Of a stretch of 64,000 nt of DNA, positions 6,775-62,316 are shown piece by piece. Made by a program: the position numbers and the translations under genes. Within the stretch, counting starts at the first letter, position 1. Every line of letters starts with the position of its first letter. The notes beneath the pieces are model-generated. The model had not been told where the DNA came from. It did not search any database and was given only the letters and a program-made list of their open reading frames with translations. Source of the stretch: a virus; IMG/VR virus record IMGVR_UViG_3300042691_039794, positions 1-64,000 of that record. The stretch is one strand, 5' to 3'.

Positions 6775-6813
6775 ATAAAAATTAAAAAGTCACTTTTAAT
6801 TTATTTATTTTAA

Positions 6814-6820
6814 TATTTAT
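6814..6820 (+). promoter_or_regulatory. putative phage late promoter TATTTAT
   Basis: motif recurs just upstream of many genes in the window. Confidence 0.55.
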
Positions 6821-6836
6821 CAATAAAAGAAATCAA

Positions 6837-7934
6837 ATGAATAAAAAATTTTTACCATGGTTTTTACTTTTTTGTGCAATAGGACTTTCGAGTACAGCCG
6901 CTTATTATAGTGTAATTGGATTGTCTATTATTTTTTCTGCAGTTGCAATCCCTGTCATAATTATGGGGTCTTTTTTGGAAATATCTAAAATTGCAATTGC
7001 AACATACCTACATGATAAATGGAAAGAAACATATGGAATTTTAAAAATATATTTAACAATTGCATTAGTAACCCTTTCAGTTCTTACATCAATTGGAATT
7101 TATGGACTACTTTCAACTGGTTTTCAAAAAAACATTGCAGGTTTGGAAATTAATAATAAAAAAATTGAAAACATAGAAGTTAAAAAAACAAGATTTGAAG
7201 AAATCAAAGGAGAATATCAAAAAGAAAAAACAACACTAGATAAAGATATCACAAACCTAAGAAATGCACTCTCAACAAATACAACTACTCAAACCGTTGA
7301 TAGAACAACAGGACAAGTTGTGACCAGAGCAAACGGGGGAAACCGAAAAGCATTTGAATCTCAATTGAAGGTTGCACAAACTAATAGAGACACATTGTCT
7401 AAAAAAATTGAAAATATTAATGATAGCATTACTAAGTTAGACCTGTTAGTTCTGGATTTAACTTCACAAGAAATAGAATCGGGGGAATTGGGTGCCATCA
7501 AATACCTTAGTGAAATTACAGGATGGAACGTAAAAAAAACAGCAAATTTCTTTATATTAACTTTGATATTTGTTTTTGATCCTTTAGCAATCGCATTAGT
7601 CATTTCAACAAATCAGGCATTCAAAAATTTCAGAAGAAAAGAAGAAGATGAGGTAGAACCAATTTATGATGAAGTTGAAGTTCCTGAAAGTTACTTCCAC
7701 CCCATGAAATCAAAAGTTACTACACAAGTTGAGACTGAGGTAATTGAAAAAATTGTAGAGGTACCTGTAGAAAAAATTGTAGAAGTAATCAAAGAAGTAC
7801 CTGTAGATAGAATTGTAGAAGTAATTAAAGAAGTGCCTGTAGAAATTATCAAAGAAGTTGAAAAAGAAAAACAACCAATTGAACAAGAAACAGATATTGA
7901 GCCAAATAAAAAAAAGTTAATATATAAAAAATGA
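6837..7934 (+). CDS. membrane protein with coiled coil and C-terminal VPV repeats
   Basis: 3 N-terminal TM segments, coiled coil, TM with DPLAIAL, EKIVEVPVEKIVEVIKEVPV repeats. Confidence 0.75.
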   Translation: MNKKFLPWFLLFCAIGLSSTAAYYSVIGLSIIFSAVAIPVIIMGSFLEISKIAIATYLHDKWKETYGILKIYLTIALVTLSVLTSIGIYGLLSTGFQKNIAGLEINNKKIENIEVKKTRFEEIKGEYQKEKTTLDKDITNLRNALSTNTTTQTVDRTTGQVVTRANGGNRKAFESQLKVAQTNRDTLSKKIENINDSITKLDLLVLDLTSQEIESGELGAIKYLSEITGWNVKKTANFFILTLIFVFDPLAIALVISTNQAFKNFRRKEEDEVEPIYDEVEVPESYFHPMKSKVTTQVETEVIEKIVEVPVEKIVEVIKEVPVDRIVEVIKEVPVEIIKEVEKEKQPIEQETDIEPNKKKLIYKK

Positions 7935-8527
7935 GTTTTGAGTTAATCAAGTTCGGTAATTTTTTTTCTCAAGGTATATCCAAATCAAAAAACAAAATAA
8001 TATTGATGCATTCCTCGAGGAACGCCGACCAATACTTGGCATCATTAAAACTCAGAAATAACGGAAAATATGCAAAAGTCCCAAATTACTTCATTTCTAA
8101 AGAAGGAAAAGTATTACAACTCTTAGAAGATGAAAAATATTCAAACTTGACTTGTAATAATCAAATAAATAAAAATTCAATTTTTGTTTGTTTAGAAAAT
8201 TTGGGTTGGTTAAAAAAAGAACCATTAAAAGATGGACACATTAATTGGATTGGAAGTATTTATAAACAAAGGGCGCTTCAGAGAACGTGGAGAGAATATT
8301 TTTTGTGGGAACCTTATCAAGAAATACAAATTGAAATGGTTAGTGAGTTGTGTAATAAACTTTTTGAATTAATGCCAATAGAAAAAAAGTTTGTGGGACA
8401 TAACACAAAAATTAATGGTGTAGAAAAGATGGGGGGTATCTTTAATAGAAGTAATATTCATGAAGATTATACCGATCTGAGTCCGGCTTTCGACTTCGAA
8501 TTACTAAATGAAAAATTAAAATTATGA
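7931..8527 (+). CDS. N-acetylmuramoyl-L-alanine amidase-like protein (Amidase_2 fold)
   Basis: IILMHS, PNYFISKEG, SIFVCLEN, PYxxxQ, D-x-S-P-A-F ending. Confidence 0.7.
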   Translation: MSFELIKFGNFFSQGISKSKNKIILMHSSRNADQYLASLKLRNNGKYAKVPNYFISKEGKVLQLLEDEKYSNLTCNNQINKNSIFVCLENLGWLKKEPLKDGHINWIGSIYKQRALQRTWREYFLWEPYQEIQIEMVSELCNKLFELMPIEKKFVGHNTKINGVEKMGGIFNRSNIHEDYTDLSPAFDFELLNEKLKL

Positions 8528-9102
8528 ATAGATATTACGAAATTAAATCATTACTTGAGGCATCAAAAAAGATGTTAGGTACAAATGTAATAAATGAAAA
8601 AAATCAAATTCTTGATAAGTATTACACTAAATTATTGATCGAAGATGACAGTCAAAATTTTGAAGTTGCAGATCAAGATGAAGAAAACCCTGAAGTTGAC
8701 AAAGAAACTAGAAAAACAGAAAAAAGTAAAACATATAGAATTACAGGGGGATTAGTTTCTATATACTCTCAGGACAAAAAAAATACAGAGTTAACGACTG
8801 AGGACAAAAAAGCTTTTCAAGAAAGTATGGATGAATTTGTTGCTGAAGTAACTGAATTGGTTGATTTCAATAAAATGAATATATACCAAGATAATGTTGA
8901 ATGGTCAGGTAAAATAACTGAATATGACGTTGATTTTTTTATAAGTATTGGGGAAAACAATGGTGTATACATCAACGGCAACATGATGAAACTAGATGAA
9001 GAGTTTGTAGAATTAGTTACAAAATTAAGAGGGTACTTTGAAAAGTTCAAAACAAGATGGAGTAAAGTATTGGCTATAAGAAAAAAAGCAGTAAATAAAT
9101 GA
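8524..9102 (+). CDS. hypothetical protein
   Basis: ORF coupled by ATGA overlap. Confidence 0.7.
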   Translation: MNRYYEIKSLLEASKKMLGTNVINEKNQILDKYYTKLLIEDDSQNFEVADQDEENPEVDKETRKTEKSKTYRITGGLVSIYSQDKKNTELTTEDKKAFQESMDEFVAEVTELVDFNKMNIYQDNVEWSGKITEYDVDFFISIGENNGVYINGNMMKLDEEFVELVTKLRGYFEKFKTRWSKVLAIRKKAVNK

Positions 9103-15361: not shown

Positions 15362-15519
15362 AAAAGTGATTTAATATCTTTGATCATAGATATCAATCCA
15401 TATATTGATAGAAAGGTCATTATTCCACCCAAAATAAAAACTAATCTTTGGGTAATTTTAACTTGTTTACTTTCCTTACAAGTTGGGCATTTAACTTCTG
15501 TTGCTTTTTTATTTTCCAT
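15358..15519 (-). CDS. small CxxC + TM protein (53 aa, not in ORF track)
   Basis: MENKKATEVKCPTCKESKQVKITQRLVFILGGIMTFLSIYGLISMIKDIKSLF; fills gap. Confidence 0.6.
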   Translation of the reverse strand: MENKKATEVKCPTCKESKQVKITQRLVFILGGIMTFLSIYGLISMIKDIKSLF

Positions 15520-52549: not shown

Positions 52550-52575
52550 AATCCCCACTCAAAAGGTGGGGTTTT
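52550..52575. terminator. terminator between convergent transcription units
   Basis: aatccccact...ggtggggtttt. Confidence 0.7.
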
Positions 52576-52580
52576 CTGTT

Positions 52581-53417
52581 TTACTTAAGTAAGTTATAAT
52601 ATTCTTTAAAGTGTTTGATACGATCAGGTAAACCAATTGTTCCACCATTCACTCTTTTTGTTACTGAAGTAACTGTTGCATCATCAGCACCTTTATCGCA
52701 AATCGCCCAAAGTTTATTTGAATCAAAGAAGAAAGCTGCAGACGCTAAAGGATATTTGGTTGCAACCAAGTCAGGATTCGCAACACAATCTTCACCAATA
52801 AATTTTGTAAAGTTTGTATAGTTTGCCTTTCCTGTTAATTGGATATAACCTCTACCTCTAAATTTAAATCCTTCTTTAGATGCTTCATCTCCATTACCCA
52901 TTCTTGATGCGTAAACACGAGCGGCAATCTTTTCAGGTTGACGAGCGTAAGATTCATTTAAGTTACCAGGAAAATACTTTCCGAAGATCTTCTTCAAACC
53001 ATCCGCAGAGTAATTCAAGTTTTCACTTACTGCCTTGAAATTACCTGACTCATGACCACATTGTGCCAAGAAGTGAGCTAATCTCAAATTATTTGTAATA
53101 TTGAATTTCTTTGCAGTTTCAGGAATCTGAGCAAGAACCGCATCAGGAATATGACCCTTTAACTTCTCAATATTTAATGGACCTCCTGATGGGATAACCA
53201 CATCCTCTTTAATAACTTCTGTGGTAGGTTTTGACTCACCAAATAGTTTAGCCCATGTTGCATCACCAACGATACCATCATCTTTTAAACCATTCGCTTT
53301 TTGCCAAGCTTTAACCGCAGCTTCTGTTTTTGGTCCGAATTTACCTATGGCTTCTACACCTAATTTTTCTTGGAGTTTTTTTACATCAGCTCCTTCTGAT
53401 CCGACTTTTAATATCAT
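52581..53417 (-). CDS. endolysin: peptidoglycan-binding domain + GH19 lysozyme/chitinase
   Basis: FLAQCGHESG, ENLNYS, FRGRGYIQLTG, VTKRVNGG; ATG 53417 preferred; minus-strand TATTTAT at 53434-53440. Confidence 0.92.
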   Translation of the reverse strand: MILKVGSEGADVKKLQEKLGVEAIGKFGPKTEAAVKAWQKANGLKDDGIVGDATWAKLFGESKPTTEVIKEDVVIPSGGPLNIEKLKGHIPDAVLAQIPETAKKFNITNNLRLAHFLAQCGHESGNFKAVSENLNYSADGLKKIFGKYFPGNLNESYARQPEKIAARVYASRMGNGDEASKEGFKFRGRGYIQLTGKANYTNFTKFIGEDCVANPDLVATKYPLASAAFFFDSNKLWAICDKGADDATVTSVTKRVNGGTIGLPDRIKHFKEYYNLLK

Positions 53418-53526
53418 AATGTTAGATTTTCCTATAAATAGTAAATTCATTAACAAAGTAAAGTTTTTCTTATAAAAAAATGATCAGTTCGTGGTTTTTA
53501 AGATACTTATTAGTAAATGAAAAAAT

Positions 53527-54126
53527 ATGGGATACACAAGAGAACAGGTCGAGGCTGCCGTTAAAGCCAAAGGTTATGTTTATTTCGAAGACGCCTCAAA
53601 CAAGGGTTACGACATAAACATTATAGGTATAAGAAACGCGGCTACCGGTCAAAAGGTAACAAACGCGTTTGATGACTTATTAACGATAAGTTACAAAGAT
53701 GAAACAGGAGCGTGGAAATACCACGAATGGCCAGCAACCACAGATCCTGGTAAAAAAGGTGTGTTGGAATATCACAACTCTGCCGGTGTTGCAAGACTTG
53801 TTGAAGGTCAGTACAGAGGTTCACACTCTATTGGTCTTCACCAAGGTAAATACGAAGCTTTAAGACAGGCAAAAAATGTTAAAGTTTATCGTGACCCAAA
53901 TCGTGATTTAACTTATGATGAAACAAAAATTGCTGAAGGAGTTTTTGGTATTAACATTCACAAGGCAGGTGCCGATTCAACTTATGTTGAGAATTGGAGT
54001 GAGGGATGTCAGGTGTTTAAGAAGTCGGCGGATTTTGAATCTTTTATGAAGATCTGTAGATTGGCTCGAGACAAACACGGAAACTCTTTCACATATACTC
54101 TTATTGAGAGTTCAGACATAAAATAA
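53527..54126 (+). CDS. putative L,D-transpeptidase (YkuD-like) cell-wall enzyme
   Basis: GINIHKAG...WSEGCQV (H..SxGC catalytic pattern). Confidence 0.6.
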   Translation: MGYTREQVEAAVKAKGYVYFEDASNKGYDINIIGIRNAATGQKVTNAFDDLLTISYKDETGAWKYHEWPATTDPGKKGVLEYHNSAGVARLVEGQYRGSHSIGLHQGKYEALRQAKNVKVYRDPNRDLTYDETKIAEGVFGINIHKAGADSTYVENWSEGCQVFKKSADFESFMKICRLARDKHGNSFTYTLIESSDIK

Positions 54127-54150: not shown

Positions 54151-56058
54151 ATGAAACAACTAAAAAGCCTGTTGATCGGGCTTTTGCTATTCTTACCATT
54201 TATTGGTAAGGCACAGGTACCTGCAGCACCATCAAATGGTCTATGGGGAATTATCGCAGCCCAATATCAAGTTGGGACAACAGCACAAGGCACAACAGAT
54301 GCGAAGATCACACTTCAAAATACTACCCTAACAAAATTTGCGGGTACTCAATTTAGAGTGTTCTACGATAATGTAGCGTTTACAAATGCAACGGTATCTT
54401 TAATTGGATCACCAACAAACTTAGACCTTCAGTATATTACAAATACGGCAAATGGTTACATTACCATTACACTTGTTTACACAGGTCCAAGTGCGACTTA
54501 CACAATACCAAATGGTGAAAGATTTTTAATTACTTTCACTCATGCGGCGGCGGCAACATTTAATAACTTGGCGTCGATCAGTAACTTAACTTGGTCAGGA
54601 CCTCAAACCTTTACACCGTATGCCGCAAAACAAGATGGTATGGATACTACGTTAAGTGTTCATAACTATGGTGGTGTTTTCACTCCTGTTAACTTCGCTT
54701 ATCACGGAACATTCACAAACGTTACTGGATCTGCGGCTAAGTATTTAAACTTGGCTTTACAGAGAAGACCGTTTGGTGGGAACACATGGACACAACACTC
54801 AACTTATGTTACTGATATCAACGGGGACTTTAGTATTTCAGTTCCTTTAGATACAACATATTGGGATGTTAGATTGGCAATCCAAGGAGACACAATGGGT
54901 GTTGGTAATATTATCTCATCAACAGATGCTCAGTTAATAAATCAGTGGGTTTTAGGAAACGGAACTATGACTGGATTTAATTACTACTCTGCGGATGTTA
55001 ACGGATCTAATAACATAACCGTATCTGATGTATGGGGTGTGTTTGGTAGAATCTCAGGAAGATTTAACTCATGGCCAAACAACACAAAAGATGTTAAATT
55101 CTTTACAGCATCTGAATACACAACAATCAATGGATCAGCAACTAACTACACATCAACTATTGCAGGTGTAACAAACTTTACATTTGATATCCTACCGGGT
55201 CAACCTGACTCAGTTGTATATTATGTATTGGTTCCTGGTGATGCTAACGGTACAGGTTATAACATGGCTCGTGTTACTCCTATCGAAGTATTGGTTGGAC
55301 CAATACCAGGTTTGGAATCACAAATCTATAATGTGATCGATACTAAAGTTGAGTATGACTTCCCTACAACAACTATAGAAGTTAATGTTCCTCATATTTC
55401 GGTTGAATCTGGAAACTTGGTAAACCTTCCTGTGAAAGTATTCACAAACGGAGAGGAGTTATCAGCACTTCAATTCGGTTTGAAATATGATACAGACCTT
55501 TTAGAATTTAAAGGAATCATTTCTTCATCAAATGCAATGGAGTGGATCACATATGTGAATCCAAATGACGGACAAATAGATTGGGGTGGGTTTGATCAAA
55601 CAAACAACGAACAAACTTTAAAAGATGGTGATGAGGTTGTTACATTACAGTTTATTGCAAAACAACCACAAACACTTTGGGAAGATAGTCCATTGTATAC
55701 TTCATTGAAGTTTGCAGGTACGAAAGACTCAAAGGATTTAACAATAACACCAACTAACGGAATCCTACAAGTATTAAAAAGTAACATGGGAGATGTTAAC
55801 GGAAACACAATACAAGTTAATCCTAATCCTGTTGTAGATGAAGTTACAATCACCTTCAAAGTTGAAGAAACAACAATCGCAAACCTTTCAGTTTATGATG
55901 TGGTTGGAAGAAAGTTGATCACAATTTTAGATGGGCAGTTACCAAATGGTGAATATACCTATAATGAAAGTTTAGGTACATTAAAACCAGGACTTTATGT
56001 GGTAACATTAACTATGGAAAATGGAGGAACAAAAGTTTCCAAAATTGTAAAACAATAA
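54151..56058 (+). CDS. T9SS-secreted scaffold: cohesin, beta-sandwich, dockerin, cohesin, T9SS CTD
   Basis: signal peptide GKA-Q; GTQFRVFYD and ALQFGLKYD cohesin strands; ISSTD../ADVNGSNNITVSD dockerin; NPNPV...VYDVVGR...LKPGLY...KIVKQ CTD. Confidence 0.8.
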   Translation: MKQLKSLLIGLLLFLPFIGKAQVPAAPSNGLWGIIAAQYQVGTTAQGTTDAKITLQNTTLTKFAGTQFRVFYDNVAFTNATVSLIGSPTNLDLQYITNTANGYITITLVYTGPSATYTIPNGERFLITFTHAAAATFNNLASISNLTWSGPQTFTPYAAKQDGMDTTLSVHNYGGVFTPVNFAYHGTFTNVTGSAAKYLNLALQRRPFGGNTWTQHSTYVTDINGDFSISVPLDTTYWDVRLAIQGDTMGVGNIISSTDAQLINQWVLGNGTMTGFNYYSADVNGSNNITVSDVWGVFGRISGRFNSWPNNTKDVKFFTASEYTTINGSATNYTSTIAGVTNFTFDILPGQPDSVVYYVLVPGDANGTGYNMARVTPIEVLVGPIPGLESQIYNVIDTKVEYDFPTTTIEVNVPHISVESGNLVNLPVKVFTNGEELSALQFGLKYDTDLLEFKGIISSSNAMEWITYVNPNDGQIDWGGFDQTNNEQTLKDGDEVVTLQFIAKQPQTLWEDSPLYTSLKFAGTKDSKDLTITPTNGILQVLKSNMGDVNGNTIQVNPNPVVDEVTITFKVEETTIANLSVYDVVGRKLITILDGQLPNGEYTYNESLGTLKPGLYVVTLTMENGGTKVSKIVKQ

Positions 56059-56081
56059 ACCCTAAATAAACAAAAACAAAA

Positions 56082-56426
56082 ATGTCAGAAGAACAAGAAA
56101 CACAAGAGACTAATGACGGGACATGGTCAGGTCTTAAAAAAACAATCATCGGAACTTTAACAACAGTTATAGCCGGTGGTGGTATTTGGTTAAGTACAAT
56201 TTTATTTGGTGGTAGTAGTGAAGAACCGAAAGAGGAAACAAAAACAGAACAGTCTGGAGGTCAAGCACCAATCACAATAAATGTACAACAAAACCAAGAA
56301 AATAAACAAAAAACAGAGAACAACAATGGGGGTGGTGTAGTTCGTGAGAGAATCATCGAAAGACCTGCACAACAACCAGCGGCACAACCTGAGAAACCTA
56401 AAAAAGTAGAAGAGGAATCTTGGTAA
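56082..56426 (+). CDS. single-TM protein with Q/N/P-rich tail
   Basis: one hydrophobic helix then low-complexity tail. Confidence 0.7.
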   Translation: MSEEQETQETNDGTWSGLKKTIIGTLTTVIAGGGIWLSTILFGGSSEEPKEETKTEQSGGQAPITINVQQNQENKQKTENNNGGGVVRERIIERPAQQPAAQPEKPKKVEEESW

Positions 56427-56453
56427 TAAATAAACAATAAATAAAAACAAAAA

Positions 56454-56738
56454 ATGGGACACAAGAAAACAAAAAAATCATTCTTAGTAAGAATGTTCAT
56501 GGATCATAACGATATCAACGAAAAATCAATAGTTGGTTTTGGTTCATTTTTAATGATGGTTATCTGTCTTGGTGTAGACATCTGGACAGGATTTCACGGA
56601 CAAAAAATGCCAATCAATCAATTTATCTATGATGGATTTTTATGGATCACTTTAGGTTCATTTGGAATTGCATCAGTTGATAAGTATTTTGCTGGTAAGA
56701 ATCCAACTAACGAGGAAGAGGAAGAAGTAGAAGGGTAA
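56454..56738 (+). CDS. two-TM membrane protein
   Basis: NEKSIVGFGSFLMMVI and FLWITLGSFGIASV segments. Confidence 0.7.
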   Translation: MGHKKTKKSFLVRMFMDHNDINEKSIVGFGSFLMMVICLGVDIWTGFHGQKMPINQFIYDGFLWITLGSFGIASVDKYFAGKNPTNEEEEEVEG

Positions 56739-57472
56739 TGAAAAGAATACTTTACATATTACCATTTCTAATGATCGGATGTAAAACTGTAGCTCAGCCC
56801 CCTCAAGGAGGGGGTATTGGCTCTGTTAAAACAGAACAATATGTTGCAGATTTTGAAAAGAAACAATCAATAGACTCGGTTGCTGATTACGATGGATCTA
56901 TTCAGGTTCCTATCCAATTATTAAAGATTGGAATTAACGAAGAACTTTATGAATTATATCCTGAGTTAAAAGATAAAAGAGTAGGTCTTGGTGTTACAAA
57001 TATTGTAATTGAATATTTGGAATATACCAACAGATTTATTTTCACCGAAGAAAAGGAAGATATCAAACAAAGAATGATTGCTCAAGACAAGGCATCAGAC
57101 AAAGGTATATCTTCAAATAAAATAGAAGTAAAAGGTAATGTTGTTTTGGCTAAGTACTTCGTTTATATTGAGGTATATGATTTTTCAGTATCAGAAGACG
57201 AGATTGTAAAAGTTAATGGACAACAAACCGTAAATCAAACTACAAGATTAGGTCTTCAGATCAAATTTGTAGATGCTGAAACAAGTCAGGTGATTGTAGG
57301 ATCAGGACTTGGAGAAGCGGTAACAATTAAAACAACATCAATCTTGGGTGATATCTCAGATGATGTTAAATTCAACCAATCAACTGTAGGTATATCTACA
57401 AAAAAAGCTTTAGAAACAGCCTCATCAAGAGTTGTGACTAGACTTATATCAAAAGGTGTATTTCCGAAGTGA
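56738..57472 (+). CDS. CsgG/HfaB-family outer-membrane lipoprotein
   Basis: lipobox MIGC; G.TNIV.EYL..TNRF...E, AKYFVY.EVYDF, LQIKFVDAETSQVI. Confidence 0.75.
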   Translation: MKRILYILPFLMIGCKTVAQPPQGGGIGSVKTEQYVADFEKKQSIDSVADYDGSIQVPIQLLKIGINEELYELYPELKDKRVGLGVTNIVIEYLEYTNRFIFTEEKEDIKQRMIAQDKASDKGISSNKIEVKGNVVLAKYFVYIEVYDFSVSEDEIVKVNGQQTVNQTTRLGLQIKFVDAETSQVIVGSGLGEAVTIKTTSILGDISDDVKFNQSTVGISTKKALETASSRVVTRLISKGVFPK

Positions 57473-59133
57473 GAATAAACATTTTCATATCTTTGTTGTT
57501 CGTCCTATTTAGTTTTTTCAAACTAAACGCACAGACCTACAACTATTCTTACACTGATCCTTGTACAGGAAACATAAAAAACCTTATAGTCCCCATCAAT
57601 GGTTCAGTCACGGTGGGGTACTATGGTTTTGTTGAGAATTTTACTCAACAACAATTTACAGATGGAACTTTTGAAACTTGGGCTAACCAAGTTTTTTCGC
57701 AATATGAAGGATCACCATGTTCAGAGATAATTGGACTTGGTGGGCAGATTAACATCGGACAAGATGTTGCTTTAAATACAATAGGTATAATCAATTCTCT
57801 TTCGTCTTTAATGGACATATCAAATGGGGCAACCGACTTTTTGAGTGGATCATTAAATGCGGCGTCAAATTCTTCTAATACCCAAGGAAGTAAAGGTAAT
57901 AAGAAGAATGGGAATAATTCCCAAAATGGAAGTGGAAACAATACACCAAATACTAATAACACCACAACCAATAATACTCAAAATCAAACAAATGGAACAA
58001 GTAACACTACTGAAGGAAGTACAACCACTTCTGGAACAAATGAAACAAGTTCAAACAACGGAGGAAATGGAACCACTAATCAAAATGGTGGAACTGAAAA
58101 TCCAACACCAGCAGGAGGAACTTCAACTGAGGGTGGATCAAATGCGAATGGAAATTCACAGGCTAGCCAGCCTATAAACAATCAAAACCAAGGTAATGAA
58201 AATAATAGTAATAATACTAGTGGCGTCGATCCTGGGAACGCTAGTGTCGTTGGGAATAGTGGGAATGTGGAAGGATCTAACCAACAAGGACAACAAGAAT
58301 TAACCAATAATGGTTCTACAACTAACCCTAACGGTAATGGTTCTAATGGTGGTGGGAACTCTGGTGTGGGGGGTAATGGTGGAAACCAACCTAACACAGA
58401 AGAAACAACACCACAAGAAGAACAAGGAGGAGGACAAACCAATATTACACAAGGGGCTACAAAAACAATAAATCAGAATAAGGAAGGTGGTAAACCTACA
58501 GTAATTGCATCGAGTGATTTTGTAGGTTTCAACTTTCAAAACTCTGAAGTTAGAACAGGATTGAAACTAACGGGTGGATATCATAACATGCGTTGGGATG
58601 GCGAAACTGCTCGTGGTGGTTTGGTTGATTATGTATCGGCACAACAGGGACCTAACATGACTGGATACCATGCGTGGATCAACAAAAGAAGTGTTGGTCT
58701 TTTATCAGGAACTTTATCTTTAGGGTTTGAAGGTAGAGGATCTGTCTATGGGACAATTGCAGGAGGACAAATGTTTATGTTCCCAAAAATTCCAAGTTTG
58801 AAAGCGGTTTATATGGGAACCGTATCATACGGTCAGGTATATAAAACTCAGTTCTTAGGAACTGCAATGATTGCAGGAGGGATGTATGACTTGAAGTTTG
58901 GAAAAAGAATAGATGTTAAACTTATGAGTTTATTTGTTTATTCACCATATGTCAGTTATTACAATGATTTAGTATTAAAATCTCCTTATGTAATCTTACC
59001 AAGTATTGGAACCAATATAAGTATTACAAAGAGATTTAAATTCAACATAAATGCAGGAGGGGCGTGGGCAATAAAGGTAAACACTCTAAATTATACAATA
59101 ACATGTGGAACAAGATTATTAGTTGGACAATAG
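57469..59133 (+). CDS. secreted/outer-membrane protein with N/G/Q/T-rich linker and C-terminal beta-barrel
   Basis: signal peptide LNA-Q; ~200 aa low-complexity segment; amphipathic beta strands at C-terminus. Confidence 0.7.
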   Translation: MRINIFISLLFVLFSFFKLNAQTYNYSYTDPCTGNIKNLIVPINGSVTVGYYGFVENFTQQQFTDGTFETWANQVFSQYEGSPCSEIIGLGGQINIGQDVALNTIGIINSLSSLMDISNGATDFLSGSLNAASNSSNTQGSKGNKKNGNNSQNGSGNNTPNTNNTTTNNTQNQTNGTSNTTEGSTTTSGTNETSSNNGGNGTTNQNGGTENPTPAGGTSTEGGSNANGNSQASQPINNQNQGNENNSNNTSGVDPGNASVVGNSGNVEGSNQQGQQELTNNGSTTNPNGNGSNGGGNSGVGGNGGNQPNTEETTPQEEQGGGQTNITQGATKTINQNKEGGKPTVIASSDFVGFNFQNSEVRTGLKLTGGYHNMRWDGETARGGLVDYVSAQQGPNMTGYHAWINKRSVGLLSGTLSLGFEGRGSVYGTIAGGQMFMFPKIPSLKAVYMGTVSYGQVYKTQFLGTAMIAGGMYDLKFGKRIDVKLMSLFVYSPYVSYYNDLVLKSPYVILPSIGTNISITKRFKFNINAGGAWAIKVNTLNYTITCGTRLLVGQ

Positions 59134-60101
59134 TATTTTTTTGTGTGTTCTCATTAAACGCACAAAACTTTACATATTCAGGTTACATAAGAAATGCTGA
59201 TGGTACTGGAGCTGTTAATGTACCTGTTAAATTATATAAAAGAACTACGCCCGTAATAAATGGGTTCACATCTCAAAATAACTACAACGGACATTCTTAC
59301 TATAGATCTACAGGATCTATGTTTTGGAGCGATGCTAGACAAGCTTGTCTGAATATGGGAGGACACTTGGTTACGGTAACAAGTGCTGCTGAAAACTCTT
59401 TTATATTTGGGATTTGGCCTTCAGGTTGGATTGGATTAACAGATGAAGTAGTTGAGGGTCAATGGAGATGGGTTACAAATGAAACATACTCCTACACCTC
59501 ATGGAATCCTGGTGAACCAAATAATGCGGGTAACGAAGATTATGTTCAATTTGTGGGGGGTGGTAAATGGAATGACTTACCAAACGGAGTATCCTTACCA
59601 TATGTGTTAGAGTTTGAATATATAGTAACATACACACCATGGGTATTACATCAAACAGTATACACAAACGCTTCAGGATATTATAATTTTTCACAACCAA
59701 CAAACCCATCAGTTGAATGGTACATACAGTACGACGCACCAACACCAGTAACTGCATTACAAATAACTGATATGGTTGAAGTTTCTAAATTGGTATTAGG
59801 GATAACCTCAATTAAAAGTATTCACTACCATAGGTATGATGTTAACTATGATGGTAGAATAAATGTTGCAGATGAAAACTACATTAATCTTAGACGATAC
59901 GGTTTTTTTGGTGGGTGGATTAATATGAGTCCATCTAGATTATTCACACCTGCACAATACACAACATTAACGACAAATACAACAGACATGAGAATAGCAA
60001 TTCCTGGTGTATCATCTATAACAATAAACTCACCTGTAAGTGGGGGATCGCAAAACTATTACTTGATAGCTCCTGGGTATAAAACAACAGTCAGTTACTA
60101 A
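59103..60101 (+). CDS. secreted C-type lectin + dockerin protein
   Basis: signal peptide SLNA-Q (ATG 59103); YNGHSYY, WIGL, EPN, WND; YDVNYDGRINVAD dockerin. Confidence 0.85.
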   Translation: MWNKIISWTIVFFCVFSLNAQNFTYSGYIRNADGTGAVNVPVKLYKRTTPVINGFTSQNNYNGHSYYRSTGSMFWSDARQACLNMGGHLVTVTSAAENSFIFGIWPSGWIGLTDEVVEGQWRWVTNETYSYTSWNPGEPNNAGNEDYVQFVGGGKWNDLPNGVSLPYVLEFEYIVTYTPWVLHQTVYTNASGYYNFSQPTNPSVEWYIQYDAPTPVTALQITDMVEVSKLVLGITSIKSIHYHRYDVNYDGRINVADENYINLRRYGFFGGWINMSPSRLFTPAQYTTLTTNTTDMRIAIPGVSSITINSPVSGGSQNYYLIAPGYKTTVSY

Positions 60102-60898
60102 TGAAAAAACTTTTAATTACACTTTTAATACCTTTTGGGTTGTTTAGTCAAGGACCGCCACCACCTCAACAAACATCCACAACTACACAAGATTTTGGTA
60201 ATACCCAAAATAATATTAACGGAGTTCAAGGTAGATCTTTTGGTGGAGGATCAATAGTTAAACCAAATCCAATTCTAACATCCGCAGATTTCGCATTTAT
60301 CCAAAACCCAACATATGAAACTGGATGGAGATATGGGACGGGTATTGGTTATAGTCGAATTAACATGGGTAAAGGTTTTGGAGTAAACGCAATGTTAACT
60401 TTTGATTTAACCCAACAAACATATTCTTTGTATTACAGAAAAAATGATTGGTATTTTCATTTAAACACTGGTAAAATGGGTTTTACTTTAAACAATGGGT
60501 TTAGTGTGACTAAAATATGGGAACTTGGAAAAATGTATGATTTAACATTAGGGGTTCAGGTAGGTAATTCAGTGGTTATAAACGGTGATAAAAATTCGAT
60601 AGGTGCTTATTTTGTTAATGTACCGTACTTAGTTTTATTGGGTCAAAAAGAAATAATAATATCAAAAAAATTAGAATGGAGACCCGAGGGATTTATTACT
60701 CTGTGTTCACCATATTATGATATAGGAAAAAAATACTTCTCAACATCAAACACATTCAACGTTGTTGTAGGGAATAATATTTCATACAATTTATCTAAAA
60801 AATTTAGGTTGAATATTGATTGGAGAATGAATATGAATACAACCCCAAAGTGGGGTTTAATGAATAATGTTCTTATTGGAACAAACTTAAAATTTTAA
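60101..60898 (+). CDS. outer-membrane beta-barrel protein, paralog of 57469 C-domain
   Basis: signal peptide; beta strands; C-terminal GTNLKF beta-signal. Confidence 0.7.
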   Translation: MKKLLITLLIPFGLFSQGPPPPQQTSTTTQDFGNTQNNINGVQGRSFGGGSIVKPNPILTSADFAFIQNPTYETGWRYGTGIGYSRINMGKGFGVNAMLTFDLTQQTYSLYYRKNDWYFHLNTGKMGFTLNNGFSVTKIWELGKMYDLTLGVQVGNSVVINGDKNSIGAYFVNVPYLVLLGQKEIIISKKLEWRPEGFITLCSPYYDIGKKYFSTSNTFNVVVGNNISYNLSKKFRLNIDWRMNMNTTPKWGLMNNVLIGTNLKF

Positions 60899-60901
60899 AA
60901 T

Positions 60902-61354
60902 ATGAAAAATATAATCTTACTACTTGGTATGTTACTACTTGGTAACCTCGCAACGGCACAACAGTGTGTTTATGTTGATTCAGTTTACAACACTGCTAAA
61001 CTAAAAGAAATGGGAAACAGAGATATCAGGTTTGGTATTCGACAAATTGTTGAGGATGAACTATCCGAAAAGTTTTGTTTATCTGAGGAAGGAAAAGATA
61101 TTGATGTTGAAGTATTTTACTTTGGATTACCTAAAACTACAATTAGAATTGTTGGTGTTGAAAAGACCGAATCAGTTACTCAAGTTGGTGTTAGATTATA
61201 CTATGATGGTAAATGTTATGAAGGGATTGGAGAGTCAGAAACAGAGATCAGAGCAATTATGATTGAGGTTAAAGAAGGTATGTTACCTTTTGAAAAAATG
61301 ACTGTATCATCGGCATTAAAAAAGGCTATACACGAAGCCGTTATCAAAATATGA
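60902..61354 (+). CDS. secreted compact CsgG-like paralog
   Basis: FGIRQIVEDEL, GIGESET, F.KMTVSSALKKA match 56738 LGVTNIVIEYL, GLGEAVT, FNQSTVGISTKKA. Confidence 0.6.
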   Translation: MKNIILLLGMLLLGNLATAQQCVYVDSVYNTAKLKEMGNRDIRFGIRQIVEDELSEKFCLSEEGKDIDVEVFYFGLPKTTIRIVGVEKTESVTQVGVRLYYDGKCYEGIGESETEIRAIMIEVKEGMLPFEKMTVSSALKKAIHEAVIKI

Positions 61355-61803
61355 AAATATGGCAACTTTTGATATTGTTAATGTTTTGGTCATCATCTTT
61401 CTCGCAAATCCGTATCGCTGATGTTGGGGATGGTTGGAAAGGTAAAGTAGAACAAGCATTAGATACTATAAAGAAATACGACATTCAAAAGTATTATCTG
61501 ATTATGGAAAACTGTTCTAATGTTGCTTATTGGAATGGAGGGTTCTCAACCACAGAAGGAGATAGTACAATCACTATACCGGCAAGAGAAATGAACGATG
61601 GAAATATCTATAACATTTCTGCGATTTTAGTTCACGAAACAATACATTTATACTTCAAAGGAACCAAGTTCAATTTGAATCCAAACACCGAAGAAGTAAT
61701 TGCATATCAACACGAACTTGAATTTTTAGAAAAGATTCCATGTGTTGATCCATGGTTAATTGAAAATGCCAAAAACAAAATCAAATTTTATTCAAAACCA
61801 TAG
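61351..61803 (+). CDS. secreted zinc metallopeptidase (gluzincin-like)
   Basis: signal peptide SFS-Q; ILVHETIH and EEVIAY. Confidence 0.65.
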   Translation: MKIWQLLILLMFWSSSFSQIRIADVGDGWKGKVEQALDTIKKYDIQKYYLIMENCSNVAYWNGGFSTTEGDSTITIPAREMNDGNIYNISAILVHETIHLYFKGTKFNLNPNTEEVIAYQHELEFLEKIPCVDPWLIENAKNKIKFYSKP

Positions 61804-61838: not shown

Positions 61839-62060
61839 ATGAAAAGAATTGCACTCATATCTCTTTTATTACTTTTGTTCTCTTGTGTCCCAACATATAA
61901 ATACAAAATTACTAATTCAAAAGGAAATTCATTTTACTGTAATTTCTATAACGAAACGGGTAATGGGTGCATTTTTTTTAATAAAAACCCTGGTTTAAAC
62001 AATACACCAGGAGAACCACACATGATTTGTGGTGAATATAAAATTGAAAAGTTAAAATAA
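61839..62060 (+). CDS. small lipoprotein
   Basis: lipobox LFSC; ATG 5 nt after TATTTTTG (61827-61834). Confidence 0.68.
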   Translation: MKRIALISLLLLLFSCVPTYKYKITNSKGNSFYCNFYNETGNGCIFFNKNPGLNNTPGEPHMICGEYKIEKLK

Positions 62061-62061
62061 A

Positions 62062-62316
62062 ATGGAAAAAGAAGGACCGGATGTTGGATTATTGTTTGTG
62101 ATGATATTAGGTTTTTTATTAGGTATGGTTTTAATATCTTGTGAGGAAAAAAAAGAACCAGAAATTGTAATAGAATTATCAAAAGATAGTAAAAACTCTA
62201 CTAGTAATGTTGATGAATATGCCTATCAAGGTTGTGAGTATATAGTGGTAGGGCCAATAAACCGTAGATGGGGTTCACATAAAGGAAACTGTAAAAACCC
62301 AATTCATAAAAAATGA
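62062..62316 (+). CDS. small lipoprotein/membrane protein
   Basis: LISC; GCEYI...HKGNCKNPIH. Confidence 0.68.
   Translation: MEKEGPDVGLLFVMILGFLLGMVLISCEEKKEPEIVIELSKDSKNSTSNVDEYAYQGCEYIVVGPINRRWGSHKGNCKNPIHKK

Follow-up and report, generated by a model that had tools for sequence, protein, structure and literature searches.

Single phage proteins that reach the host envelope are known, among them exclusion lipoproteins, porin-like proteins and the csgG/csgF products of marine myophages. The csgG/csgF carriers, pelagimyophages of the HTVC008M type and the methylophage Melnitz, are large myophages of Proteobacteria that encode sequence-recognisable CsgG and CsgF without curlin, near a cell-wall hydrolase (PMC7029224, PMC9004378). 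Here we describe a block of nine genes, g1 to g9, within a 64,000-nucleotide stretch (hereafter the window) that forms the first 64 kb of the 75.5-kb virus record IMGVR_UViG_3300042691_039794 in IMG/VR. Unlike the pelagimyophage and Melnitz proteins, the CsgG-like protein of this block, g4, misses the Pfam CsgG family and has no CsgF beside it; its partners are a predicted cargo of the type IX secretion system (T9SS), a lectin and outer-membrane barrels, and the host belongs to Bacteroidota.

The closest relative in a cultured phage is found in Flavobacterium phage vB_FspM_immuto (NC_055915, 160 kb, genus Immutovirus, host Flavobacterium sp. LMO8), hereafter immuto. Its genes gp013–gp019 encode a lectin, a cohesin/sorting-domain protein, a g2-like protein and orthologs of g4 (71% identity), g5 and g8, in the same order as here except for the lectin, which stands first. 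The immuto block differs in having g1 as two genes and an ordinary signal peptide on the g4 ortholog, in lacking g3, g7 and g9, and in adjoining ribonucleotide reductase and nuclease genes. Megablast of our block against deposited phages gave no match, and immuto was found by protein-level search. Its record annotates the genes only as "lectin C-type domain-containing", "cohesin domain-containing" or "hypothetical", and we found no paper on the function of the block. A preliminary description of the window, made from sequence alone, had stated that no described phage system combines these parts. The literature agrees in that we found no description of a phage-encoded T9SS cargo or of a phage cohesin–dockerin module, but the immuto genes were already deposited and partly annotated, and csgG/csgF were known from pelagimyophages and Melnitz.

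The block consists of nine plus-strand open reading frames spanning 54151–61803, with neighbours that overlap or lie at most 27 nt apart. Two pairs, g4/g5 and g8/g9, share 4-base frame overlaps, and g7 and g8 are separated by 3 bases. The contiguity, orientation and coordinates given in the preliminary description are exact, and every product carries, as it had held, an envelope-targeting feature. The genes are as follows.

54151–56058, plus strand: g1, 635 amino acids (aa); signal peptide, cohesin-like domain, dockerin-like insert, cohesin and predicted T9SS C-terminal sorting domain.
56082–56426, plus strand: g2, 114 aa; single-pass membrane protein with a span at about residues 22–44 (hydropathy 1.58 at residue 22).
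56454–56738, plus strand: g3, 94 aa; two membrane spans (hydropathy peaks at residues 25 and 57).
56738–57472, plus strand: g4, 244 aa; lipoprotein of predicted CsgG fold (lipobox LMIGC; AlphaFold2 model).
57469–59133, plus strand: g5, 554 aa; linker and predicted outer-membrane barrel (signal peptide cut at NA/Q; AlphaFold2 model).
59103–60101, plus strand: g6, 332 aa from ATG (frame open from GTG at 59064); C-type lectin (Lectin_C, 59 bits).
60101–60898, plus strand: g7, 265 aa; predicted barrel, probably paralogous to the g5 C terminus (signal peptide cut at FS/Q).
60902–61354, plus strand: g8, 150 aa; secreted compact paralog of g4 (hhalign).
61351–61803, plus strand: g9, 150 aa; secreted putative zinc metallopeptidase (HExxH at nt 61633–61647).

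The block is a recurrent feature of viral genomes. The source record (CheckV completeness 26%) has about 30% G+C and nearly every gene on one strand in the window, which also holds phage-type genes for an SbcC-like nuclease, an RNA ligase, a thymidylate synthase and a weak major-head match. A protein identical to g1 is encoded by 32 contigs, which reach 279,598 bp, so the genome of the source phage probably measures about 280 kb; together with the IMG/VR provenance and the block in cultured immuto, this upholds the assignment of the record to a phage. We found 154 relatives of g4 in IMG/VR (65–97% identity), the largest contig with one measuring 291,867 bp. Searched by tblastn, g1, g2, g4, g5 and g8, with g6 and g9 in most cases, occur together in about 80 loci at 23–98% identity, and the genes are in this sense co-conserved. 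Optional members are g3, kept in 29 loci and sometimes placed elsewhere in the block, and g7, kept in few. Jumbo phages of about 280 kb are among the carriers, as are relatives of the genus Immutovirus. A metagenome search with the g1 family alone returned more than 1,500 protein clusters, and at least eight independent studies have yielded nearly identical DNA, from lake, estuary, aquatic and wastewater metagenomes.

In a collection of 185,579 species, with one genome per species, four contigs carry a g4 relative, and all are metagenome bins with phage-type neighbours: three are assigned to Flavobacterium or Bacteroidetes and one to Sediminibacterium. The Sediminibacterium-bin contig (L091, 4033–8971) has a distant version of the block in which a g8-like gene precedes the cohesin protein. 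There the cohesin, a distant relative, scores above cut-off in a protein without a sorting domain, a separate 118-aa lipoprotein has a weak sorting domain, and the g5-like linker is rich in Ala, Ser, Glu and Lys rather than in Asn and Gly. The host group of the block-bearing phages is Flavobacterium, a genus that has a T9SS.

Cohesin and dockerin modules are best known from cellulosomes, and non-cellulosomal cohesin-like and dockerin-like modules are widespread in bacteria and archaea. The block shares with both types one cohesin above cut-off and a two-segment calcium-loop module whose second loop fits a dockerin. It differs from a cellulosome in having no carbohydrate-active enzymes, a single clear cohesin and a degenerate first dockerin loop; the dockerin-like segment lies within a larger beta-sandwich, and a T9SS sorting domain takes the place of an S-layer homology domain or sortase signal as the anchor. 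Residues 409–508 of g1 (nt 55375–55677) match the cohesin family PF00963 at 36–37 bits against a cut-off of 24.1. The second, N-terminal cohesin described earlier (residues ~48–137) is borderline, with a weak match of 15 bits (E 0.03). The C terminus (residues 557–635, nt 55819–56055) passes both PF18962 (35.1 bits, cut-off 27) and TIGR04183 (38.2 bits, cut-off 23), in agreement with the sorting domain first reported. Within it PNP, G586, G600, Y604 and G614–Y616 are invariant in 20 orthologs, and the g1 profile matches a solved T9SS C-terminal domain (8glj_D, E 0.036). On this evidence the cohesin of g1 is genuine and the protein a T9SS type A cargo, whose export is predicted.

The dockerins assigned to g1 and g6 are borderline. 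In g1 the dockerin-like insert occupies residues 255–294 (nt 54913–55032), within a beta-sandwich. Its match to Dockerin_1 (PF00404) is 19.3 bits with the whole protein and 22.9 bits with the fragment, the latter equal to the cut-off of 22.9; g6 stays below that value at 17.4 and 19.2 bits, while its ortholog at locus L017 reaches 22.8 bits. A profile of 20 g1 orthologs matches the ScaB dockerin (4uyp_B) with E 0.004. The second calcium loop is canonical, reading DVNGSNNITVSD in g1 and DVNYDGRINVAD in g6, and D282, V283, N284 and D293 are invariant in the 20 g1 orthologs. The first loop, in contrast to the second, is degenerate, being one residue longer and without the Asn/Asp ligands at positions 3 and 5. 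Prediction of a complex between the g6 dockerin module and both the second cohesin and the first cohesin-like domain of g1 gave a score of 0.29 against a mark of 0.32, which is evidence neither way.

The lectin of g6 is far clearer. Its Lectin_C match (PF00059, nt 59319–59606) reaches 59.4 bits against a cut-off of 22.6, solved animal lectin domains are matched with E down to 2.5e-25, and the EPN and WND motifs are present and are kept in lectin-bearing orthologs. The g6 domain is thus a C-type lectin, as originally proposed, and is predicted to be of the canonical calcium-type, sugar-binding kind. An EPN motif in C-type lectins predicts mannose- or GlcNAc-type ligands. The two proteins share a common module (g1 213–368, g6 193–338) made up of a beta-sandwich, dockerin-like loops and a beta-rich tail, in which the g6 lectin occupies the N-terminal part and the dockerin-like loop falls at nt 59763–59873. 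Among g6 orthologs the payload changes: we found Lectin_C, Lectin_C interrupted by a concanavalin A-like Laminin_G_3 domain, Lectin_C with Ig_7, GEVED, and an unidentified domain, while every payload type retains the dockerin-like module. To judge from these architectures, the lectin occupies a swappable payload slot, which has not been described before. If such parts dock onto a shared anchor, one would expect this combination of a fixed module and a changing binding payload. A T9SS type B sorting domain in g6 found no NCBIfam or Pfam match. A diversity-generating retroelement acting on the lectin was considered and set aside, the window holding no g6 template-like repeat and the 75.5 kb of the record, about a quarter of the genome, no reverse transcriptase.

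The g1 counterpart in immuto consists of two genes one base apart (6805–8629), each with a signal peptide that follows the Q-rule described below. The first, gp014, has a signal peptide, a cohesin-like domain and a dockerin-like module; the second, gp015, has its own signal peptide (MKSWIVILLLSINSLYS/Q) followed by a cohesin (36.7 bits) and a sorting domain, both of which pass Pfam. This split, also reported here for the first time, looks like a natural gene fission and not a frameshift error. Since g1 is fused in one lineage and divided in another, and since the Sediminibacterium-bin contig likewise has its sorting-domain-like piece on a separate small protein, the two halves are suggested to act together without a covalent link.

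In type Va autotransporters such as NalP, EspP and EstA, a signal peptide and N-terminal domain are joined by a long linker to a 12-stranded barrel, and g5 has the same layout. Its signal peptide is followed by an N-terminal domain of about 110 aa with two invariant Cys, a linker of about 210 aa and a C-terminal barrel (residues ~340–554, nt 58486–59130). The linker is rich in Asn, Gly, Thr, Ser and Gln (25% Asn, 19% Gly, 16% Thr), and its length and sequence vary greatly among orthologs. In the AlphaFold2 model of the last 222 residues (predicted local distance difference test, pLDDT, 78), 12 long antiparallel strands superpose on the NalP translocator with Z 21.6 and a root-mean-square deviation (RMSD) of 2.3 Å over 202 residues. 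EspP, EstA and BrkA follow at Z of about 20, and the 12-stranded porins KdgM and NanC and the amyloid exporter FapF are close behind (KdgM, EspP and FapF, Z 19–20). The model therefore bears out the Asn/Gly/Gln-rich protein with a barrel of the preliminary description and indicates that the g5 C terminus is a 12-stranded outer-membrane barrel. The autotransporter-like layout predicted for g5 is new here. It differs from type Va proteins in a "passenger" of only about 110 residues and in the near-equal fit of KdgM-type porins and FapF. A PorP/SprF- or PorV-type barrel was rejected for g5 and g7, as neither has an NCBIfam or Pfam match of that kind, and PorV fits the g5 barrel at Z 13 against about 20 for the 12-stranded barrels.

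The second barrel proposed earlier, g7, holds up with modest statistics: it is collinear with the g5 barrel and has motifs in common with it (hhalign E 1.6e-4, probability 50%), so that g7 is probably a paralog of that barrel. It has a Pro-rich stretch after the signal peptide and a terminal Phe, and its neighbours in the ESM Atlas, which we treat only as a lead, are generic outer-membrane barrel families. In g9 the HExxH motif noted from the outset is conserved, with H95, E96, H99, E114 and E115 invariant in 18 orthologs; its Pfam matches to M76 (13.7 bits) and SprT-like (11.9 bits) are both sub-threshold.

The CsgG channel (4uv2, 4uv3) is a nonamer in which two amphipathic hairpins per subunit build a 36-stranded membrane barrel; it has fold relatives in PelC, FlgT, LptE and the N-domain of TolB, and several such lipoproteins serve outer-membrane barrels or form rings. 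Neither g4 nor g8 matched Pfam CsgG (PF03783) directly at E up to 1, and direct search of their sequences and profiles against solved structures gave nothing meaningful. A profile of g4 orthologs recovered 265 relatives among 1.84 billion representatives; P0113, P0134, P0136 and P0144 were matched at E 1e-12 to 1e-14, and these proteins pass Pfam CsgG with 24–46 bits. The AlphaFold2 model of g4 (pLDDT 77) has CsgG (4uv2) as its top match (Foldseek E 1.5e-8), on which it superposes best (VIA Z 13.7, RMSD 3.7 Å over 179 residues), followed by CT253, FlgT, PelC and LptE at Z 8–10. Its best viral fold match, in BFVD, is an uncultured-phage protein named CsgG. The compact paralog g8 aligns to g4 with an hhalign probability of 95.4% (E 1.8e-8; 29 orthologs aligned) and is without a g4 insert of about 40 residues; the ESM Atlas offered only unannotated viral clusters for g8. 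These models and profiles indicate that g4 and g8 have the CsgG fold. In some distant g4 relatives (P0096, P0102, P0106, P0113, P0136), the CsgG-like domain is fused to a Ser/Thr protein kinase or stands ahead of a caspase (Peptidase_C14).

Fold and paralogy thus stand as first described, but a CsgG-type pore does not follow from them. With a mean column identity of 79% over 23 orthologs, g4 is the most conserved member of the block; its sequence identity with the CsgG channel and its fold relatives is 11–14%. Its model has long hairpins at CsgG-equivalent sites (strands 140–157, 162–179 and 185–201), and the hairpin in the place of the first CsgG transmembrane hairpin has a tip that is polar on both faces and invariant (SVSEDE...KVNGQQ). 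Nor is lipidation conserved: the lipobox is present in 44 of 54 orthologs, and an ordinary signal peptide replaces it in the other 10 and also in immuto gp017 and the Sediminibacterium-bin copy. No block protein has a Pfam or NCBIfam match to CsgF, CsgE or curlin. Because of the polar invariant hairpin, the variable lipobox and the want of these partners, the pore reading of g4 is not secured, and we regard it as doubtful.

All nine products carry a Sec signal, a lipobox or membrane spans. The predicted cleavage sites are KA/Q in g1, NA/Q in g5 and g6, FS/Q in g7 and g9 and TA/Q in g8, so Gln follows the cut in six of six ordinary signal peptides, which is the Q-rule of Bacteroidetes signal peptides (PMC5837995). 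Porphyromonas phage proteins with the Q-rule have been taken as an adaptation to host secretion or as envelope modifiers (PMC10367356). About 120 genes of the 75.5-kb contig were put through a crude, ATG-only signal-peptide scan, which flagged seven of the nine block genes and two small lipoprotein genes just downstream; it missed g5, which has a signal peptide and a GTG start, and g2 and g3 lack a signal peptide but span the membrane, in keeping with the two small transmembrane proteins first described. Outside the block about eight genes were flagged, with an (A or S)Q site in three only. The clustering of export signals in the block exceeds chance. At record position 73225–73797, past the window, lies a gene for a secreted 190-aa protein with an FS/Q signal peptide and a sub-threshold T9SS sorting domain (19–20 bits), and just upstream of it one for a 97-aa protein with three hydrophobic spans.

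Four further genes flank the block.

52581–53456, minus strand: glycoside hydrolase family 19 (GH19) endolysin, divergent from the block; PG_binding_1 (52 bits) and Glyco_hydro_19 (34.5 bits), both above cut-off.
53527–54126, plus strand: g0, a cell-wall enzyme candidate; phrog_3000 (E 1e-37) and phrog_33083 "endolysin" (E 3e-12).
61839–62060, plus strand: small lipoprotein gene, 73 aa; lipobox LFSC.
62062–62316, plus strand: small lipoprotein gene, 84 aa; lipobox LISC.

The plus-strand run opens with g0, which ends 24 nt before g1. No Pfam family matched g0, and in a PHROGs search it alone was matched, the nine block proteins finding no family. Its H...SEGC motif is reminiscent of the catalytic motif of L,D-transpeptidase-fold enzymes. 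The GH19 endolysin lies beside the block in most loci (59–97% identity), its position varies, and both it and g0 accompany the block even where the gene order differs. The two small lipoprotein genes after g9 are possible further members, the second being kept in about 20 close loci; a TATTTTTG motif stands in the short gap ahead of the first (61839). In g2, which always lies between g1 and g4, a low-complexity tail is probably periplasmic, and g3 has an acidic C terminus and a holin-like shape.

Just beyond the 3' end of the endolysin gene, where the upstream plus-strand run also ends, a G+C-rich hairpin with a T run (CCCCACTCAAAAGGTGGGG TTTT, 52553–52571) is probably a two-way terminator. 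Motifs TATCTTTG and TATATTTG, which fit the Bacteroidota −7 pattern TAnnTTTG, precede many genes of the window; sites of this type lie, for example, at 15375, 15567, 18692, 29865, 32160, 39539, 40876 and 41171. The pattern occurs 130 times in the window against a shuffled mean of 110, slightly above expectation, and sigma-70-type matches are at chance level in a promoter scan. Two studies contributed three RNA libraries that contain short, near-identical pieces of g0, g1, g2, g4, g5 and g8; we do not count them as proof of expression, because DNA carry-over is possible and the contigs give neither strand nor level, and we attach no weight to the lack of such pieces for other parts. Elsewhere in the window, an acidic coding repeat of roughly (V/I)E(K/E)(I/V)VEVPVE recurs in two different genes, at 259–372 and 7743–7886, about 7.4 kb apart.

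We tentatively read the block, with a confidence that falls a little short of even, as a conserved accessory operon of big Flavobacterium/Bacteroidota myophages that remodels the envelope and displays exchangeable sugar binders on the infected cell. The operon would load the host envelope during infection through the host Sec, lipoprotein, beta-barrel assembly machinery (BAM) and T9SS routes. In this scheme g1, or its cohesin and sorting-domain half (gp015 in immuto), would be exported by the T9SS and remain as a surface anchor, on which g6 and the separate N-terminal half of immuto g1 could dock through the common beta-sandwich/dockerin-like module, leaving an exchangeable sugar-binding payload on the cell. 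The C-terminal barrel of g5 would display that protein's own small domain on a long disordered stalk. For g4 and g8 we favour a role as periplasmic or lipid-anchored barrel partners, comparable to LptE–LptD and PelC–PelB, over a curli-type pore, because g4 precedes g5, g8 follows g7, and LptE and PelC serve barrels; g9 may process one of the block proteins. The net effect would be a re-dressed, sugar-binding surface, made from the same plus-strand run as the cell-wall enzyme candidate g0, with a likely use in sticking to particles or cells, or in masking surface glycans against further phage adsorption. A more specific form, possible although we think it unlikely to be right in full, is a modular non-covalent display platform in which the T9SS cohesin anchor captures dockerin-like proteins with lineage-swapped payloads, and the autotransporter-like barrels with their CsgG-fold partners provide a second surface route, specific to the phage.

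Several observations weigh against this reading of the block as an envelope-display operon. The dockerin matches lie at or below the Pfam cut-off and come with a degenerate first calcium loop. The cohesin–dockerin-like pairing is a prediction, for which the hints are indirect, namely the immuto gene fission and the kept module with its variable payload. The lectin protein g6 has no sorting domain of its own, and we know of no precedent for T9SS export of a non-covalent passenger. For g5, no Pfam Autotransporter (PF03797) match was found and no helix is predicted ahead of the barrel, the residues before the first strand being coil with pLDDT below 50. The 70-nt region upstream of g0 has no TAnnTTTG motif. 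The link to lysis does not hold in every phage: in immuto, nucleotide-metabolism genes adjoin the block, and the annotated endolysin is some 8 kb away. Finally, the roles given to g2, g3, g4, g8 and g9 were guessed from their shape or fold.

The block could instead be an apparatus for egress or lysis, the outer-membrane and envelope arm of the phage's lysis system. The barrels and CsgG-fold proteins would weaken the outer membrane or make holes in it, with g3 as holin and with g2 and the small lipoproteins in a spanin-like role, alongside the two peptidoglycan hydrolases. The flanking GH19 endolysin and g0, which move along when the order changes, fit this, as do the start of the block's own plus-strand run at g0, the two spans and acidic tail of g3, the single span of g2 and the pair of small lipoproteins after g9; for Melnitz and the pelagimyophages, csgG/csgF have been proposed to time lysis with a cell-wall hydrolase (PMC9004378). 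Such an apparatus nevertheless leaves no obvious role for the T9SS cohesin protein, the hypervariable lectin slot or the stalked autotransporter-like protein; conservation within the block is lowest for g3 and the small lipoproteins, the immuto block sits beside ribonucleotide reductase genes and about 8 kb from the endolysin, and g4 has a polar hairpin and is soluble in some orthologs. We rate a lysis function as rather improbable. Superinfection exclusion or receptor masking would differ from the envelope-display reading in purpose only, the two overlapping in mechanism: the lectins and the cohesin protein would bind host surface glycans or gliding/T9SS proteins, so that infected cells and debris stop adsorbing phage. 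Gliding/T9SS surface proteins and surface glycans are the usual receptors of Flavobacterium phages, and receptor-blocking phage lipoproteins and outer-membrane proteins are established in other phages. The products are envelope-targeted, related phages differ in their sugar-binding payload, which would make sense if the payload tracks variable host surface glycans, and the EPN motif points to mannose- or GlcNAc-type ligands. On the other side, the lectin ligand is a prediction, and eleven genes far exceed the needs of known exclusion systems; as the purpose of the whole block, masking strikes us as unlikely.

The full model of the preliminary description goes further, with g4 as a CsgG-type pore that exports g5 or g6, and g1 self-polymerising into an adhesive mesh that captures fresh hosts. 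CsgG is indeed the top structural match of g4, g5 has its 210-residue Asn/Gly/Thr/Gln-rich region, g1 contains both a cohesin and a dockerin-like module, and "sibling capture" has been proposed for the pelagimyophage curli genes, as quoted in PMC9004378. Set against this are the invariant polar hairpin where CsgG has its first membrane hairpin, the lipobox missing from 10 of 54 g4 orthologs and also from immuto gp017, and the lack of any Pfam match to CsgG, CsgF, CsgE or curlin in the block proteins; the g5 linker varies greatly and resembles a spacer rather than an amyloid core, and no clumping was seen in Melnitz cultures (PMC9004378). We consider the pore-and-mesh model very unlikely. A host-derived or chimeric assembly fragment, which the preliminary description itself had named as grounds for rejection, or a set of virion structural genes, might be suspected from the slightly higher G+C of the block (0.34–0.37 against about 0.30 across the remaining window). 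The chimera objection fails because the block recurs in more than 150 viral contigs, sequences of 150–290 kb among them, and in the completely sequenced cultured immuto; the four matches among the genomes of 185,579 species are all bins with phage-type neighbours. Virion structural genes are contradicted by the signal peptides, the lipobox and the T9SS sorting domain, which are foreign to virion proteins. To either of these readings we give almost no credence.

The block belongs among phage-encoded envelope accessory genes, and on its domain architecture a docking logic is plausible. Nine to eleven exported proteins in one operon represent another scale than single envelope proteins, and hundreds of phage genomes from lakes, estuaries and wastewater retain this one, with its T9SS cargo and hypervariable lectin slot. 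If the more specific display-platform form is true, this would be the first phage found to use the T9SS to re-dress its host, and the first cohesin–dockerin system that has a known biological context but does not serve to break down polysaccharides. The block lends itself to asking what cohesin and dockerin-like modules do outside cellulosomes. Immuto and Flavobacterium sp. LMO8 form a cultured pair that carries the block, so these predictions are directly testable. Given the size of the g1 family and its spread over independent studies, the module probably matters for the death, aggregation or resistance to further infection of abundant freshwater Flavobacteria.

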